Shown in pieces: positions 10,799 through 47,039 of a stretch of 64,000 bases of DNA (its first letter is position 1; each line of letters opens with the position of its first letter). The stretch lies in NCBI GenBank assembly GCA_044344255.1, contig JBIJDH010000022.1, positions 64,001-128,000 of the forward strand. The letters are read 5' to 3'. The notes under the pieces were generated by a model. That model did no database searches, had not been told where the DNA came from, and saw only the letters and a program-made list of their open reading frames with translations. Source of the DNA: Myxococcota bacterium. Its GTDB lineage: Bacteria; Myxococcota_A; UBA796; UBA2385. Made by a program: the position numbers and the translations under genes.

Positions 10799-10814
10799 TG
10801 GCACGCTCCTTGCT
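10799..10814 (+). promoter_or_regulatory. sigma54 (-24/-12) promoter
   Basis: TGGCACG-CTCC-TTGCT, an exact consensus match, 30 bp before the sigma-factor ATG. Confidence 0.85.
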
Positions 10815-40376: not shown

Positions 40377-40392
40377 TGGCACGCACCTTGCT
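40377..40392 (+). promoter_or_regulatory. sigma54 (-24/-12) promoter of the halogenase operon
   Basis: TGGCACG-CACC-TTGCT exact consensus, about 93 bp before ATG 40485 (AGGAG RBS). Confidence 0.85.
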
Positions 40393-40484
40393 CACACCCT
40401 CTGCGACGGCGCACCGGCGCACTCTCCCTCTCCACTTTTCCCTCTCTCCATCACTCCCTCTGTCCATCCAGTCAGGAGCACACC

Positions 40485-42128
40485 ATGTCCGAGTCTATTC
40501 GAAATGTCCTCATCGTCGGCGGCGGGACCTCGGGATGGATGACGGCCGCCTATCTGCGCCGCGCCCTGCCGGCGGGCGTAGCGATCACGGTGGTCGAGTC
40601 GGACCGCGTGCCCACCATCGGGGTCGGCGAGGCCACCTTCAGCACCATCAAGCTCTTCTTCGACTACCTCGGCCTCGAGGAGCGCGAGTGGATGCCCGAG
40701 TGTAACGCCACCTACAAGATGGCCATCCGCTTCGCCGGCTGGAACGCCGAGGGCCGCGACTTCTATCACCCTTTCCAGCGGTACGAGACGGTGGACGGCT
40801 TCTCGATCGCCGACTGGTGGCTCCGCCTGCACAAGGACAAGCCCTTTGACCGCATGTGCTTCGCCATCCCCGAGCTCTGTGAGAGCAAGCGCTCGCCCCG
40901 CTTCCTCGACGGGGAGGTCTTCGACCCCACCGTGCAGCACGCCTTCCGCCGCGAGCACATCGAGCAGCAGAACATGCTCGGCGAGCACAAGATCCAGTAC
41001 CCCTATGCCTATCACTTCGACGCCGCCCTCCTCGCCCGCTTCCTGATGAAGCGCACCGTCGCCGACGGCGTCCGCCACATCCTCGACGACGTCACCCACG
41101 TCGGCCTCCGCCCGGACGGCGCCATCGGCCACATCGAGACGCAGAAGCACGGCCGCCTCGAGGCTGACCTCTACATCGACTGCACCGGCTTCGCCGGCCT
41201 GCTCATCAACAAGGCGCTCGGCACCCCCTTCATCTCGTTCAATGACACGCTCCTCTGCGATCGCGCCGTGGCGATGCAGGTCCCCGAGGACATCGAGGAC
41301 GAGGGCATTCGCCCCTACACCACCGCGACGGCCCTGTCCGCCGGCTGGGCCTGGAACATCCCGCTCTATGGCCGAAAGGGCACCGGCTACGTGTACTCGA
41401 GCCGCTTCATCAGCCCCGAGCAGGCCGAGGCCGAGCTGCGCAGCCACCTCGGCCCCGCCGCCGACGGCCTCAAGGCCAACCACATCCGCATGCGCATCGG
41501 CCGCAGCCAGGACGCTTGGGTGAAGAACTGTGTCGCCATCGGCCTCTCCAGCGGCTTCGTCGAGCCCCTGGAGTCGACCGGCATCTTCTTCATCCAGCAC
41601 GGCATCGAGCAGCTCGTCACCCACTTCCCCACCAAGGACTTCGACCCGAGCCTCATCCGCAGCTACAACCGCGGCGTCGGCGAGTGTATCGACGGCGTGC
41701 GCGACTTCCTCACGCTGCACTACTACGCCAGCACCCGCGCCGACACGCCCTTCTGGAAGGCCACGAAGGAGGTCACCATCCCCCCGGCGCTGGCCGAGCG
41801 CCTCGCCCTCTGGAAGCAGCGCCTCCCCGACGCCATGAGCATCAACCCCGCCTACCACGGCTTTGAGGCCTACTCCTACTCGGTGATGCTGCTCGGCCTC
41901 GGCTACGTGCCCGAGGGCCCCCAGCCCGCGGTCGCCGGCGCCGATCCCCGCCGGGCCGAGGCCGCCTTCGCCCGGCTGCGCGCCCGCACCCGCTCCCTCG
42001 TGGACAAGCTCCCCAGCCAGTTCGAGTACCTCAGCCACGTGAGCGAGTCCCGAGGCGAGCTCTCTCAGGGCGGGATGCGGCTCTATCGCCGCCCGGTCGG
42101 CGCCGAGCAGGCCGAGGCCCGGTCGTGA
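40485..42128 (+). CDS. flavin-dependent tryptophan halogenase (PyrH/SttH-like subgroup)
   Basis: GGGTSG, IGVGEATF, catalytic Lys in NATYKMAIRF, FYHPF, QYPYAYHFDA, WAWNIP, FVEPLESTG, YHGFEAYS. Confidence 0.95.
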   Translation: MSESIRNVLIVGGGTSGWMTAAYLRRALPAGVAITVVESDRVPTIGVGEATFSTIKLFFDYLGLEEREWMPECNATYKMAIRFAGWNAEGRDFYHPFQRYETVDGFSIADWWLRLHKDKPFDRMCFAIPELCESKRSPRFLDGEVFDPTVQHAFRREHIEQQNMLGEHKIQYPYAYHFDAALLARFLMKRTVADGVRHILDDVTHVGLRPDGAIGHIETQKHGRLEADLYIDCTGFAGLLINKALGTPFISFNDTLLCDRAVAMQVPEDIEDEGIRPYTTATALSAGWAWNIPLYGRKGTGYVYSSRFISPEQAEAELRSHLGPAADGLKANHIRMRIGRSQDAWVKNCVAIGLSSGFVEPLESTGIFFIQHGIEQLVTHFPTKDFDPSLIRSYNRGVGECIDGVRDFLTLHYYASTRADTPFWKATKEVTIPPALAERLALWKQRLPDAMSINPAYHGFEAYSYSVMLLGLGYVPEGPQPAVAGADPRRAEAAFARLRARTRSLVDKLPSQFEYLSHVSESRGELSQGGMRLYRRPVGAEQAEARS

Positions 42129-43312
42129 TCGCCGCCGACCGCGCGGTGGGCTCGGCCCGCGCTCGACAGATGCCGATGCCGCCCATCCGCGCCATCTTCG
42201 AGGCCGCCTCCCGCATGGAGGACATCGTGCGCCTCGAGGTGGGCGAGCCGGACTTCGGCCCCCCCGCCTGGCTCCGCGAGGCCCACATCGACGCGCTGCG
42301 GCGCGACAGCTCGCACTACACCTCCTTCAGCGGCCTCCTGGCCCTGCGCGAGGCCATCGCCCAGAAGCTGGCACGAGAGAACGGGATCACCCGGGACCCG
42401 GCGACCGAGATCCTCGTCACCTCGGGGGCCACCGGCGCGCTCTATCAGGCGCTCCAGGCCACCGTGGACCCGGGCGATGAGGTGCTCCTCCCGGCGCCGG
42501 GCTGGCCCCAGTACATGGCGTCTACGGCCCTCGCGGGCGGCGTGCCGGTCTTCTATCCGCTACACGCGGCCAATGGTTTCGTCCCGCGGGCCGAGGACAT
42601 TGCGCGCCTCATCACCCCGCGCACCCGCGTCCTCCTGCTCAATTCGCCCGGGAACCCGACCGGCGGCGTGATCGACGCCGCGACCCTCCAGGCGCTCGCC
42701 GCCCTCGTCCAGCAGCACAACCTCGTGCTCATCTCCGACGAGGTCTATGAGCACATCCGCTTCGACGGGGCGGCGCACCTGAGCCCGGCCGCGCTCCCGG
42801 GGATGGCCGAGCGCACCCTCACGCTCCACAGCGCGTCCAAGACCTTCGCGGTCACCGGCTGGCGCATCGGCTTCGCCGCCGGCCCCGCCGCCCACATCGG
42901 GCCGATGACGAAGATCGGCCTCTCCACCTGCACCCACCCGAGCACCCCCGCCCAGCACGCCTGTGTGGCGGCCTATCGACGGAGCGCGGAGGGGGACATC
43001 TCCCGGATGGTCGACACGCTCCGGCAGCGGCGGGACTTCCTCTGTGACAGCCTCTCCGCGATGCCCGGCCTCCGCTGCACCCGGCCCGCCGGCGCCTTCT
43101 ATGTGTTCGTGAACATCGAGGGCACCGGGCTCGACTCCGAGAGCCTCTCCTGGCACCTGCTCCGCAGCGCCGGCGTCTCGACCGTGCCCGGGGTCGGCTT
43201 TGGCCCCGGGGGAGAGGGCTTCATCCGCCTCTCCTTCGCCGCCTCGATGACCGAGCTCGAGCGGGGGGTCGAGCGGATCCACCGGGCGCTCTCCCAGCTC
43301 GCGCACGGCTGA
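42125..43312 (+). CDS. PLP-dependent class I/II aminotransferase
   Basis: GEPDF, VTSGATGAL, NSPGNPTG, SDEVYE, SASKTFAVTGWRIG (PLP Lys), FIRLSFA; GTGA overlap with the halogenase. Confidence 0.93.
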   Translation: MIAADRAVGSARARQMPMPPIRAIFEAASRMEDIVRLEVGEPDFGPPAWLREAHIDALRRDSSHYTSFSGLLALREAIAQKLARENGITRDPATEILVTSGATGALYQALQATVDPGDEVLLPAPGWPQYMASTALAGGVPVFYPLHAANGFVPRAEDIARLITPRTRVLLLNSPGNPTGGVIDAATLQALAALVQQHNLVLISDEVYEHIRFDGAAHLSPAALPGMAERTLTLHSASKTFAVTGWRIGFAAGPAAHIGPMTKIGLSTCTHPSTPAQHACVAAYRRSAEGDISRMVDTLRQRRDFLCDSLSAMPGLRCTRPAGAFYVFVNIEGTGLDSESLSWHLLRSAGVSTVPGVGFGPGGEGFIRLSFAASMTELERGVERIHRALSQLAHG

Positions 43313-43365
43313 GCGCCCTCTCGCCCCGCCCCTCTCGCCTCCTCCCCTCCGCCTCCGGAGCCGTC

Positions 43366-44502
43366 ATGTTCAGCCTCTCGCTCGACGCCACCCCCGCCTA
43401 CTCCCCTCGCTCCGCGGCCCCCTCCCTCTCCGCGCGCCTGCAAGCCGCCGCGCGGCTGGTCGACGCGCAGGACCCCGCCGCCGAGGCCGCGCTCGCGGCG
43501 CTCCGCTCCGACACGGAGGCCGCGCAGGGCCCCGAGGAGCGGCTCGCCCGCCTCTTCTTGGGTGCGCTCGAGGCGCGGCGGGCGGGCCTCGCCGCCGACC
43601 TCGGCAACCTCTACGGCGGCGGCGCCGGCCCCGCCGAGATGCTCGGCGCCTTCGAGGCCTTCGTCCAGGACACCCCGCTCGTCCGCTTTGCACACCACGC
43701 CGCCAACGCGGCCCACCTCGCGGCCATCGGCGACGCCGCCGCCGTCCGCATCATCGACGTCGGCCTCGGCTTCGGCAGCCAGTGGGAGCCCCTCCTCCAG
43801 GCCCTCGCCCGCCGCCCCGGCGGCCCGCCCGCGGTGCACCTCGTCGGCATCGACCTCCCCGCCCCCGGGGCAGACCCGGCCGCCGGGCTCACCGCGGTCG
43901 GGGCCCGCCTCGCTCGCCTCGCCGAGGGCTGCGGCGTACCCTTCACCTTCACCGCGCTCCCCGGGCGCGTCGAGGACCTGCCGCTGCCCGAAGTCGAGCC
44001 CGGCGAGCGCCTCACCATCAACGCCGCCTTCGCGCTCCACCACACCGGCCCCCTCGATCGCGACCCCACGCTGGCGCGCCTCGCGGCCACCGGCGCCCAC
44101 GCCATCGTGCTCTGCGAGCCCGAGGCGGACCACGACGCGCCGGCCTTCCCGGCCCGCCTCCGCGCCGCGCTCCGCCACTACGGGCTCGTCTTCGACGTCC
44201 TCGACCGCTGCCTCCGCGAGCGCCCGGCCGCCCGGGCCGTCATCGAGGGGCAGTTCTTCGGTCGCGAGATCCACAACGTCGTCGTCGGCGAAGGCGCCGC
44301 GCGGGTCGAACGCCACGCGCCCCACGCCGACTGGTCCCGCCGCCTCCGGGCCGCCGGCCTGTCGCCGGTCTCCCTCCGCACGAGGCCGGACAGCCAGCTC
44401 CGGCTCCCCGACGGCGTCGCGGTGGTGCCCCTGGGCTCGGCCACGGCCCTCACCGTGGATGGAGAGCCCCTGGTGGTGGTCTCGGCGTGGCAGCCGAACT
44501 GA
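43366..44502 (+). CDS. GRAS-domain protein (SCARECROW/DELLA-like, methyltransferase fold)
   Basis: PLVRFAHHAAN, VRIIDVGLGFGSQW..LLQALARRPGGPP (VHIID), EPEADH..F..RL..ALRHY..VFD (PFYRE), GREIHNVV.GEG..RVERH, C-terminal VSAW. Confidence 0.93.
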   Translation: MFSLSLDATPAYSPRSAAPSLSARLQAAARLVDAQDPAAEAALAALRSDTEAAQGPEERLARLFLGALEARRAGLAADLGNLYGGGAGPAEMLGAFEAFVQDTPLVRFAHHAANAAHLAAIGDAAAVRIIDVGLGFGSQWEPLLQALARRPGGPPAVHLVGIDLPAPGADPAAGLTAVGARLARLAEGCGVPFTFTALPGRVEDLPLPEVEPGERLTINAAFALHHTGPLDRDPTLARLAATGAHAIVLCEPEADHDAPAFPARLRAALRHYGLVFDVLDRCLRERPAARAVIEGQFFGREIHNVVVGEGAARVERHAPHADWSRRLRAAGLSPVSLRTRPDSQLRLPDGVAVVPLGSATALTVDGEPLVVVSAWQPN

Positions 44503-44565
44503 GCGGGCGCCGCTCACCTCCCACTCACGCCGGATACGCGCTCCACACCTTCGGTCTGCTCGGCC

Positions 44566-45969
44566 TCAGCCCCGCCGACGCAGCCCGAGGGCCAGCCCAA
44601 AGAGGCCGAGGCCGACGAGGCCGGTGACCGGAGCGCGAGGCGCGGAGGCACAGCCGCAGCCGGCCTTCTCCGCGGGCTCCGCGGCGCCGCCGCCATCCTC
44701 GGCGGCGCCGTCGGCCCCGTCGGCCCCGTCGGCGCCGCCCGCCCCGTCGGCGCCGTCCGCGCCGTCCGCGCCGTCGCTGCCGCCGCTGTCACCCTCCCCG
44801 CTGGTGTCACAGAGCTCGATACACTCGCGATTGGCGGTGGTGTCGTCGGCGAAGCTCAGCACCTTGTCTTCGAGGATGTTCGAGGTGTAGAAGATGAGGT
44901 CAGCGGAGGCCTGCTCGGGGGTGTAGCGCATCCGCATGCGGGTCATGAAGTGACTGTCAAAGGCCCCGACGAAGCCCAGGTCCTGGAGGTCCTGCTCGGT
45001 CGGATAGACGCCGGTGCAGGGGTTGCAGGAGGAGATGCCTCCGCTGAACTCGGTGGTCCAGCCCGCGGTGCCGGTGGCGGCCCAGGCGCTCGTGAAGCGC
45101 TCCTCGTAGAAGGCCTTGAAGTCGTCGGTGGGGGCGCCCCAGATGCAGCGGTCGGGGACGTCGAACTCTGTGTAGTTCGAGATGCCCACCTTCCCCGCCG
45201 CGCCGTCTACGATGGTGTAGATCACCATGTCCTGGCTGCCCGGGGAATTGAGCGTGGCGAGGCGAATGGGGACGGAGAAGACCTCGCTCTCATAGGAGAC
45301 CTGGAGCGGCGACAGGGACGAGCCGTCGGCCATCGCTGCGGTGTCGGCCACCTGGGCCGCGAAGAAGAAGCTGCCGGCCTCGATGTACTCGGCGAGGATA
45401 GGGTCCGCGCCGGGGGCGAGCTGGAAGCCGTGCCCGTCGAGCCACTCCTGGAGCGCGCCCGACTCCTCGGCCGAGAGGATGAAGACCCGGTACTCCCCCA
45501 CGAGGTACTCCGCGACCACGTCCACCTCGCCGTCGTCTCCGCCGCCGCCCCCGGCGCCGTCTCCGCCCTCGGCGTTGGAGGGGATGCAGCCGGCGTCCGA
45601 GACGTGGCGGGGCCCCGTGTAGCCGTCGAGGCGGGCGAAGACCTCGGCGTCGAGGGTCTTGACCTCCTCCTCGGAGGGCACCTCGGGGACCGGGAGGAGG
45701 AGCGCGAAGTCTTGCGGCTCCCCGCTCGGGTTGACCGACACCGAGAAGGTGGTGCGGTTGCCCTGTCGCACCAGGGCGAGCCGCGCGACGTCAAAGCTGA
45801 GCTGGGAGGGGGTGCCGGTGACCAGCGTGGGGCAGGCCCAGGCCGAGCCGCCCACCGCCGAGAGGGCGAGGAGGAGGGACAGGGTGAGGCGCGCGGGGCG
45901 GGGCAGGGCGGTGGGCACGGGGGCTCCGGGGCGAGGGCGAGGCCCCGAGGATAGCCGGGCGTCGCTCAA
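44566..45969 (-). CDS. DUF2330-like secreted protein with GAD linker and MYXO-CTERM-like tail
   Basis: GEPQDFALLLPVP, LQEWL..HGF, YIEAGSFFFA, VPIRL; C-terminal GCGC...LGLRRRG. Confidence 0.82.
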   Translation of the reverse strand: MSDARLSSGPRPRPGAPVPTALPRPARLTLSLLLALSAVGGSAWACPTLVTGTPSQLSFDVARLALVRQGNRTTFSVSVNPSGEPQDFALLLPVPEVPSEEEVKTLDAEVFARLDGYTGPRHVSDAGCIPSNAEGGDGAGGGGGDDGEVDVVAEYLVGEYRVFILSAEESGALQEWLDGHGFQLAPGADPILAEYIEAGSFFFAAQVADTAAMADGSSLSPLQVSYESEVFSVPIRLATLNSPGSQDMVIYTIVDGAAGKVGISNYTEFDVPDRCIWGAPTDDFKAFYEERFTSAWAATGTAGWTTEFSGGISSCNPCTGVYPTEQDLQDLGFVGAFDSHFMTRMRMRYTPEQASADLIFYTSNILEDKVLSFADDTTANRECIELCDTSGEGDSGGSDGADGADGADGAGGADGADGADGAAEDGGGAAEPAEKAGCGCASAPRAPVTGLVGLGLFGLALGLRRRG

Positions 45970-47039
45970 CCCGCCTGCGCACCCGCGTCGAGGGCCCAGC
46001 GGACAGGCGCCTCGTGCCGCCAGGGCCGGAGCTCGGCGCCCGCGCCGAAGGGCAGGCTCGGCGGCGGCGTCCAGTCGCGCCGCGTAAGGGTGACCGCCCC
46101 CTCGTTACGCGGCAGCCGATAGAAGTCGGGCCCGTTCTCGGAGGCGAAGGCCTCGAGGCGGTCGAGCGCCCCCACCGCGTCGAAGGCCTCGGCATAGAGC
46201 TCGATGCCGGCGTGGGCGGTGTAGCAGCCCGCGCAGCCGCAGATGGCCTCCTTGCGGGAGACCGCGTGCGGCGCGCTGTCGGTGCCGAGGAAGTAGCGGG
46301 AGGGCCCGCGGGTGGCGGCCTCCAGAAGGGCCTGGCGGTCGGTCTCCCGCTTGAGCACGGGGAGGCAATAATAGTGGGGCCGGACCCCGCCCACCAGCAG
46401 GTCATTCCGGTTCGCCAGCAGGTGGTGGGCGGTGAGGGTCGCCCCGACCGCGGGCCCGGCGGCGTCGACGAAGGCCACCGCGGCCGCCGTCGTGAGGTGC
46501 TCGACCACCACGCGCAGGTCGGGCAGGCGGCCCAGCAGGGGCCCAAGCACCCGCTCGAGGAAGACCCGCTCCCGGTCAAAGATGTCGATGTCGGGGTCGG
46601 TCACCTCGCCGTGTACGAGCAGCGGCAGCCCGACCCGGGCCATGTGCGCGAGCACAGGCTCGACCTGGGACAGGGACCGCACCCCGGCGGACGAATTGGT
46701 GGTGGCGCCCGCGGGATAGAGCTTCACGCCGACGATGCCCGCGGCGACCGCCTCGTCGATGTCTCCCTCTGTGGTCTCTTCGGTGAGGTAGAGGGTGAGC
46801 AGGGGCTGGAAGGGCCGCTCGGGACAGGCGGCCTGTCGGGCCCGCTCGATGCGCTCGCCATAGGCCAGGGCGTCGGCCGCCCGCCGGAGGGGCGGCAGCG
46901 TGTTCGGCATCACCACCGCCCGCACGAAGCGGCGCGCCGTGTCGCCGATGACGGCCTGGAGGGCCTCGCCGTCACGGAGGTGGAGGTGCCAGTCATCGGG
47001 GGCGCGGAGGGTGAGCCGGTCAACGGTGGGGGGCGTCAT
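45966..47039 (-). CDS. pyrC: dihydroorotase (homodimeric type)
   Basis: DDWHLHLRDG, VMPN, KLYPAGATTNS, LLVHGEVT, EHLTT, YCLPVLKR, FLGTDSAPH, CGCAG. Confidence 0.96.
   Translation of the reverse strand: MTPPTVDRLTLRAPDDWHLHLRDGEALQAVIGDTARRFVRAVVMPNTLPPLRRAADALAYGERIERARQAACPERPFQPLLTLYLTEETTEGDIDEAVAAGIVGVKLYPAGATTNSSAGVRSLSQVEPVLAHMARVGLPLLVHGEVTDPDIDIFDRERVFLERVLGPLLGRLPDLRVVVEHLTTAAAVAFVDAAGPAVGATLTAHHLLANRNDLLVGGVRPHYYCLPVLKRETDRQALLEAATRGPSRYFLGTDSAPHAVSRKEAICGCAGCYTAHAGIELYAEAFDAVGALDRLEAFASENGPDFYRLPRNEGAVTLTRRDWTPPPSLPFGAGAELRPWRHEAPVRWALDAGAQAG

Follow-up and report, generated by a model that had tools for sequence, protein, structure and literature searches.

A bacterial GRAS-domain protein encoded with a tryptophan halogenase and an aminotransferase, and its possible role as a methyltransferase of aromatic 2-oxo acids

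A GRAS-domain protein of a Myxococcota bacterium is encoded by the last gene of an operon that also codes for a tryptophan halogenase and a class I aminotransferase. This operon lies in a 64,000-nucleotide stretch of contig JBIJDH010000022.1 (hereafter the window, in which all positions are given), with its three genes on the forward strand. Bacterial GRAS proteins have been proposed to be small-molecule methylases, and we know of no substrate or ligand for any of them, nor of an occupant for the cavity of plant GRAS proteins. By analogy with the StnQ1/StnR pair, we propose that the GRAS protein uses SAM to methylate an aromatic 2-oxo acid, which in this operon is probably chloro-indolepyruvate, and we give this reading a probability of about one half. 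The first-pass annotation of the window had passed over the two genes upstream on the same strand, which are the informative part. The single gene is less special than it had claimed, but its neighbours make the open question of function one that an assay can address.

The first gene of the operon (40485..42128, + strand) codes for a tryptophan halogenase of the SttH/PyrH group (PF04820, E 1.2e-146), with SttH (5hy5, E 1e-189) and PyrH (2wet, E 4e-188) as its best PDB matches over the whole length. According to the available part of PMC5071727, the regioselectivity loop reads FET in PyrH and LPP in 6-halogenases, and a triple swap at this loop shifted the selectivity of SttH on tryptophan only partly. 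The window enzyme has F460-E461-A462 and thus matches two of the three FET residues, so that 5-halogenation is the better guess; as judged from this loop, the enzyme is probably 5-specific on tryptophan. The next gene (42125..43312, + strand; GTG start) overlaps the stop of the halogenase gene by four bases and codes for a class I PLP-dependent aminotransferase (PF00155, E 6e-70). Its best PDB match is 1dju, an 'aromatic aminotransferase' (E 1.8e-90); it also matches prephenate aminotransferases and scores under every NCBIfam cut-off shown. The GRAS gene (43366..44502, + strand) follows, with an ATG start preceded by GGAG at 43357-43360, and codes for 378 residues.

Upstream of the operon, a promoter-like site (40377..40392, + strand) matches exactly TGGCACG-N4-TTGCW, which we take to be the -24/-12 consensus of sigma-54. 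The 8.2-Mb genome has 38 such exact sites, and the chance of one is about 0.05% per 200 bases of one strand. Neither a sigma-70 promoter nor a terminator above chance was found at the operon. No flavin reductase, NRPS or other cluster gene lies beside the halogenase gene; a flavin reductase is encoded elsewhere in both cassette-bearing genomes searched. Elsewhere in the window, the only other exact sigma-54-type site (10799-10814) is found just upstream of a gene for a sigma-70-family sigma factor, and the segment 16535-20512, with a GC content of 0.58-0.61 vs 0.72, codes for an AAA ATPase, a GmrSD-N protein and an uncharacterized protein and is probably an acquired defence island.

The same three genes are present at a second locus (L001), with identities of 87% for the halogenase, 84% for the aminotransferase and 73% for the GRAS protein. 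Its flanks are different, and the DNA likeness to the window is limited to the three genes (40475-43290 and 43434-44491). The divergent fatty-acid desaturase gene and the convergent DUF2330 and pyrC genes that flank the operon in the window are absent from L001 and were rejected as members of the unit. An exact sigma-54-type site is found 70 bases upstream of the L001 halogenase gene in flanking DNA that is otherwise unalike. Such a site was present at only 2 of the 30 operon starts checked (L001 and L137), and it is therefore not general to GRAS operons. The L137 module (L137:1467-6094, contig G000:C31 of the window's own genome), with its sigma-54-like site near the start, codes for a HisC-like aminotransferase whose branch in the tree is close to those linked to GRAS, a ThDP enzyme and two proteins without Pfam match; it could process aromatic 2-oxo acids. 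In G454, a genome of another family of the same order, an aminotransferase gene adjoins the GRAS gene; as this locus and L001 may be one and the same, we counted the two once. The link of the halogenase to GRAS rests on two occurrences.

The cassette is rare. Of the 154 genomes of the order, 11 gave a GRAS match, as did 15 of the 401 of the phylum, and a full-length halogenase was found in 1 of the 22 genomes of the family, namely that of the window itself (G000). Such rarity is unlike that of housekeeping genes and bears on one alternative, in which the GRAS protein would be a general SAM-consuming or amino-acid methylase, its link to aminotransferases would reflect amino-acid or sulfur housekeeping such as methionine recycling, and the halogenase would be a passenger. 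Aromatic and HisC-like aminotransferases are promiscuous, and the gene contexts of bacterial GRAS vary widely, as with the GRAS-CinA pairs of Myxococcaceae, both of which would suit that role. However, the halogenase gene overlaps that of the aminotransferase, and in two genomes it accompanies the aminotransferase and GRAS genes behind a single promoter-like site; we hold the housekeeping role to be very doubtful.

The product of the third gene matches the GRAS profile PF03514 over its whole length (positions 4-374 of 374; 216 bits vs a cut-off of 27; E 8.6e-64), which bears out its identification as a full GRAS protein. The domain begins at about residue 21-24, so that only ~20 residues precede it and the long N-terminal variable region is indeed missing. 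All 15 of the 15 PDB sequence matches are plant GRAS entries, and a profile of 59 GRAS sequences matched no methyltransferase by sequence in the PDB. An AlphaFold2 model (pLDDT 93.7, from a 59-row alignment) has the helical cap and the alpha/beta core. The first-pass annotation had suggested that such a model be compared with SCR/SHR and SAM methyltransferases, and these comparisons gave Z scores of 40 and 18, respectively. The four plant GRAS structures (SHR/SCR, SCL3, SCL7 and RGA) superpose with Z 39-40 and rmsd 2.2-2.6 Å over 345-362 residues. Structure matches of ranks 5-50 are methyltransferase-fold entries, and the nearest non-GRAS folds are BelI-SAM (Z 18.5, rmsd 2.7 Å over 205 residues) and CmoA (Z 18.3), at 13-18% identity. 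As modelled, the protein is thus a bacterial GRAS-domain protein with a class I SAM-methyltransferase fold.

The gene is native to its host, as its codon usage had suggested. Its GC3 is 0.96, in line with the 0.90-0.95 of ten neighbouring genes, and it is the only GRAS copy in the genome (95% complete). Moreover, a contig from run X4, which carries no flag as a potential source of the assembly, covers 43214-46224, that is the GRAS gene, the DUF2330 gene and part of pyrC, with one difference. The host-like GC3 and this joining to downstream genes rule out contamination. The aminotransferase-GRAS junction is spanned by no contig among those listed from the sequencing runs, joints with sides of <30 bases being ignored. 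None of the RNA runs is listed as carrying the locus, one of them having given five short partial pieces only. The habitat is freshwater (20 rows from 17 studies, 3 possible sources), which has no bearing on the donor of plant GRAS.

To place the protein among its relatives, we pooled 285 GRAS domains and removed 19 of under 300 residues and 53 near-duplicates, leaving 213 rows for FastTree; an IQ-TREE analysis was run on 59 chosen rows, 14 of them plant or algal (including Spirogloea and Closterium) and 45 bacterial. In the latter tree, plants form one clade (100/100) nested in a bacterial radiation that we call clade A. Clade A also contains the window protein, the Sorangium GRAS proteins and Pontibacter-type fusions; its support is 89/96, with a bootstrap not fully settled and a root assumed among clade B, the GRAS proteins of actinobacteria, bacilli and Myxococcaceae. 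The protein had been described as highly plant-like and as belonging to the bacterial clade closest to plants. It does lie inside the radiation that contains plant GRAS, but it is not the closest to them: with a path of 1.81 to the base of the plants (1.24-1.28 for the nearest rows), it comes 20th among the 45 bacterial rows, and it is 43rd of 102 bacterial rows by a plant-only HMM. Forcing its five-row subclade and plants into one clade lowers lnL by 54 (p-AU 0.035), and we rejected it as the immediate bacterial sister of plant GRAS. By its placement in the tree, the window protein is a derived clade-A member.

The plant GRAS subdomains had been reported in order, and all the quoted motifs could be located in that order in the translation: LHRI-like ERLARLFLGALEAR at residues 58-71, VRIID/DVGLGFG at 127-137, QW..LLQALARRPGGPP at 139-155, LVGID at 159-163, FALHH at 222-226, RVERH at 313-317 and SAW at 373-375. 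The SAM-type motifs (GxGxG, an acid after the second strand and FALHH) are intact and located at strand ends in the model. Motif I, D131-x-G-x-G-x-G137 (43756..43776, + strand), follows strand beta-1 (residues 126-132). D163 (43852..43854, + strand), at what we take to be the ribose-binding position of class I methyltransferases, ends strand beta-2 (156-163), and H225-H226 (44038..44043, + strand) come after strand beta-4. Of the 64 clade-A rows, 60 retain DxGxGxG, as do 28 of 38 clade-B rows vs 9 of 111 plant rows; the corresponding counts are 63/64, 36/38 and 80/111 for the acid (D/E) at the end of beta-2, and 62/64, 37/38 and 13/111 for the HH pair. Since these motifs are conserved across bacterial rows, they are the bacterial norm, and their intactness does not set this protein apart. 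More broadly, a set of His and Glu residues (H225, H226, E251, H256, H271, E301 and H317) is near-invariant in bacteria and decays in plants. The residue preceding V202-E203, presumably the adenine-binding position, is neither acidic nor conserved. From the secondary structure of the model, NLY (81-83), GIDLP (161-165), NAAFALHH (219-226) and FFGRE (297-301) map onto the four elements that are said to line the GRAS cavity, the beta-4 loop being among the cavity-lining parts (available part of PMC5873383). The conserved bacterial set looks like a candidate active site.

Further clues to function come from the genes that accompany GRAS in other bacteria. We collected 22 clade-A loci through GRAS and not through a partner, although kin among them are not independent; six of them (L064, L065, L091, L095, L100 and L101) were of insufficient length for the tree, and no gene had been called in L092. 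As partners we counted PF00155 genes that were fused to GRAS or lay at most 3.5 kb away on its strand. Ten of the 22 loci have less than 1 kb of DNA on a side, too short to judge. Of the 10 clade-A loci that hold a fusion or have flanks long enough to use, 7 have a class I/II aminotransferase partner (L001, L002, L003, L082, L084, L086 and L108), against a background of 0.86% (0.43% same strand) in 20,000 random stretches of the window's own genome. In clade B, 2 of 31 loci have one. Furthermore, a flavin oxidase gene adjoins GRAS in L081 and L091, with L-amino-acid oxidases as best matches (E 1.5e-54 and 2.3e-37, respectively); an in-frame stop interrupts the L081 oxidase gene, and a frameshift the L091 GRAS gene, by error or decay. 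Neither an aminotransferase nor an oxidase is encoded near GRAS in L005, which represents 18 Sorangium loci, in L090 and, it appears, in L092.

Several clade-A GRAS domains are fused to the aminotransferase. A search with the GRAS half of one fusion, P0046, among proteins of 413-1315 residues gave 95 matches, the best 43 of which are PF00155-PF03514 fusions; 16 of those 43 are named Pontibacter or Botryobacter, and most of the 43 form one lineage. The fusions measure 690-760 residues, and none was found in a search for homologues among proteins of 768-2190 residues. They fall at three places in the tree, P0028, the fusion closest to the window GRAS protein (57%), being a separate lineage. Motif I and the PLP motifs of the aminotransferase are intact in all 44 fusions checked, and the LHH motif in 43 of them. 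Outside the window cassette, the fused or adjacent aminotransferases are HisC-like with intact PLP motifs, and their tree repeats two pairings of the GRAS tree, L002 with P0028 and P0046 with the Pontibacter group. The best PDB match of the L003 enzyme is a phenylalanine aminotransferase (4r2n); that of a Pontibacter fusion is a histidinol-phosphate aminotransferase, the Phe enzyme coming fourth. A search for hisD found none in G387 (94% complete) or G167 (90%), and in G241 and G000 a hisC-like gene other than the partner lies close to hisD; the partner is therefore probably not for histidine, and a role in histidine synthesis is unlikely. Weak Alliinase_C matches on some fusions were set aside as cross-matches and make no link to plant TAA1. 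These fusions are visible in public annotation. A full-text literature search turned up no description of them or of the aminotransferase link, nor do the available parts of PMC9474926, PMC10699852 and PMC13759103 mention either; Zhang 2012 and Cheng 2019, which lay outside that search, may do so.

All three kinds of partners, AspC/aromatic and HisC-like aminotransferases and L-amino-acid oxidases, yield 2-oxo acids from amino acids. An instructive parallel is StnR, which converts tryptophan to indolepyruvate; StnQ1 methylates the latter, and StnR transaminates the product back to beta-methyl-tryptophan (available part of PMC4742848). Based on this logic and on the step shared by the partners, we read the cassette as a path from tryptophan, to which the halogenase beside GRAS narrows the substrate, to chloro-tryptophan, chloro-indolepyruvate and a methylated product. 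The three genes would form one small biosynthetic unit. The halogenase would chlorinate tryptophan, probably at C5, with the help of a flavin reductase encoded elsewhere, and the aminotransferase would interconvert chloro-tryptophan and chloro-indole-3-pyruvate. The GRAS protein is predicted to bind SAM and to methylate chloro-indolepyruvate, most likely at C3 via a histidine-bound metal, in the manner of StnQ1, MarI, MppJ and SgvM; in SgvM, a zinc coordinated by H244 and H296 holds the keto acid (PMC10502145, in the part available). The predicted product would be beta-methyl-chloro-indolepyruvate or, once re-transaminated, beta-methyl-chlorotryptophan; this reading also covers methylation of these intermediates at O or N. 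More generally, clade-A GRAS proteins would act on 2-oxo acids supplied by the partner aminotransferase or L-amino-acid oxidase.

Several results count against the 2-oxo-acid methyltransferase reading: the nearest methyltransferase folds are BelI and CmoA and not the MppJ family, the GRAS profile matches no methyltransferase by sequence, the residue preceding V202-E203 is not acidic, plant GRAS domains bound neither SAM nor SAH, and Sorangium and L090 lack a nearby aminotransferase gene. CmoA converts SAM with prephenate, and phenylpyruvate is released. The GRAS protein might likewise use SAM otherwise than for methylation, in a CmoA-like reaction with prephenate whose phenylpyruvate would feed the aminotransferase, itself a match to prephenate aminotransferases, or in a SAM-dependent decarboxylation or cyclization. 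Such chemistry appears quite unlikely to us: identity to the CmoA and BelI folds is low, as given above, and it would leave unexplained both the tryptophan halogenase and the L-amino-acid oxidases, enzymes that do no more than produce 2-oxo acids.

Other neighbours of bacterial GRAS genes suggest a sensor of small molecules, which would bind the aromatic 2-oxo acid or the indole product, with or without SAM, and signal to regulators, foreshadowing the cofactor role in plants. An FHA-sigma-54 activator is encoded upstream of GRAS in Sorangium L004 and L021, Trans_reg_C proteins beside it in L023 and L031, SpoIIE phosphatases beside it in L074, L076, L077, L110, L112 and L113, and an AfsR-like BTAD/AAA/TPR protein between GRAS and the aminotransferase in L002; in L110, GRAS, SpoIIE and a HisC-like aminotransferase are all encoded on one strand. 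Plant GRAS proteins also retain the cavity without binding SAM, neither SAM nor SAH having been bound by plant GRAS domains in ITC (available part of PMC5873383). However, the regulator links are mostly in clade B, no regulator gene was found in the window cassette, and the near-invariance in bacteria of motif I, the beta-2 acid and the His/Glu set, with their decay in plants, is as expected of an active site. We consider the sensor role possible, if on the unlikely side, and prefer that of a 2-oxo-acid methyltransferase.

A few of these gene neighbourhoods deserve mention in their own right. Clade-A GRAS genes are present in 18 of 18 Sorangium loci (L004-L021); in the two that were scanned, the FHA-sigma-54 activator is upstream, and glutamate synthase genes are downstream on the opposite strand. 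The Myxococcota loci with SpoIIE listed above share a conserved operon coding for a clade-B GRAS protein, a ~180-residue protein and a SpoIIE/PP2C phosphatase, followed by two more small proteins where the locus is long enough and, in L110, by the HisC-like aminotransferase. In Myxococcaceae (L025, L027, L028, L032, L042, L050 and L055), the GRAS gene is followed by a CinA-domain gene and one for a ~135-residue protein without Pfam match. Finally, P0270 is a GRAS-TerB fusion of 521 residues, and a TerB gene (L086:223-1011) is divergent from the L086 fusion.

The GRAS regulators of plants (DELLA, SCARECROW, SHORT-ROOT and NSP1/2) reached the land-plant ancestor from bacteria. In our analyses, a tree that holds plants together with P0033, P0046, P0039, L084 and L086, a group chosen post hoc, has an lnL 1.3 above the free tree (p-AU 0.54); four of these five are aminotransferase fusions, and in the best-scoring tree obtained, fusions are the neighbours of plants. 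That one bacterial GRAS subgroup is monophyletic with plants has already been published (PMC12448838, PMC9942845, as far as available). As some fusions rank with the bacterial sequences that come closest to plants, it may have been a module of this kind that gave plants their GRAS gene. It is conceivable, if unlikely, that plants acquired one half, the methyltransferase, of an aromatic-aminotransferase module, and that the ligand of this module was indole-3-pyruvate, the auxin precursor, or a similar 2-oxo acid. In that case, aromatic keto or indole acids might still be bound in the empty cavity of plant GRAS, and the window cassette would make a chlorinated, methylated indole signal. More immediately, the recurring tie to makers of aromatic 2-oxo acids, with a halogenase pointing to tryptophan, gives a short list of candidate substrates, and the Pontibacter fusions and the three-gene cassette make the question of the substrate testable by expression and LC-MS.

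How does this system compare with those already described? Its halogenase resembles PyrH, AbeH, SttH and Th-Hal, which are its top PDB matches, with the PyrH-like FE at the regioselectivity loop; unlike them, it comes from a Myxococcota-type freshwater genome and has no flavin reductase, NRPS or cluster genes adjacent to it. Bacterial GRAS proteins and their methyltransferase fold are known (Zhang, Iyer & Aravind 2012, as cited in the available parts of PMC4279901 and PMC6770801). Like them, the window protein is a stand-alone PF03514 protein with a Rossmann methyltransferase fold and intact SAM-type motifs, present as one copy per genome. It is 41-42% identical to the 'GRAS-like transcription factor' of Sorangium, but the latter has a sigma-54 activator upstream and no aminotransferase, whereas the window protein belongs to a halogenase-aminotransferase operon. 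With the plant GRAS cofactors SHR, SCR, SCL3, SCL7 and DELLA it shares the cap, the core fold and five motifs in order; in contrast to plant proteins, it has no N-terminal variable region and retains DxGxGxG and HH (found in 9 and 13 of 111 plant rows, respectively). Lastly, as in StnQ1/StnR, MarI/MarG, MppJ and SgvM, a protein of methyltransferase fold is coupled to a PLP-dependent aminotransferase of aromatic type. As in the MppJ/SgvM group, a conserved His appears to follow beta-4, with further near-invariant His residues in the sequence (H225, H226, H256, H271 and H317), and the fold matches SgvM (Z 15.7) and MppJ (4kic; Foldseek E 1.2e-6). Unlike StnQ1, MarI, MppJ and SgvM, the window protein belongs to a different sequence family (about 15-18% identity), and its operon has no cupin epimerase and includes a halogenase. 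Its sequence matches are GRAS entries only, which led us to reject membership of the MppJ/SgvM/StnQ1 family by sequence; the likeness that we propose lies in the way these proteins would work.
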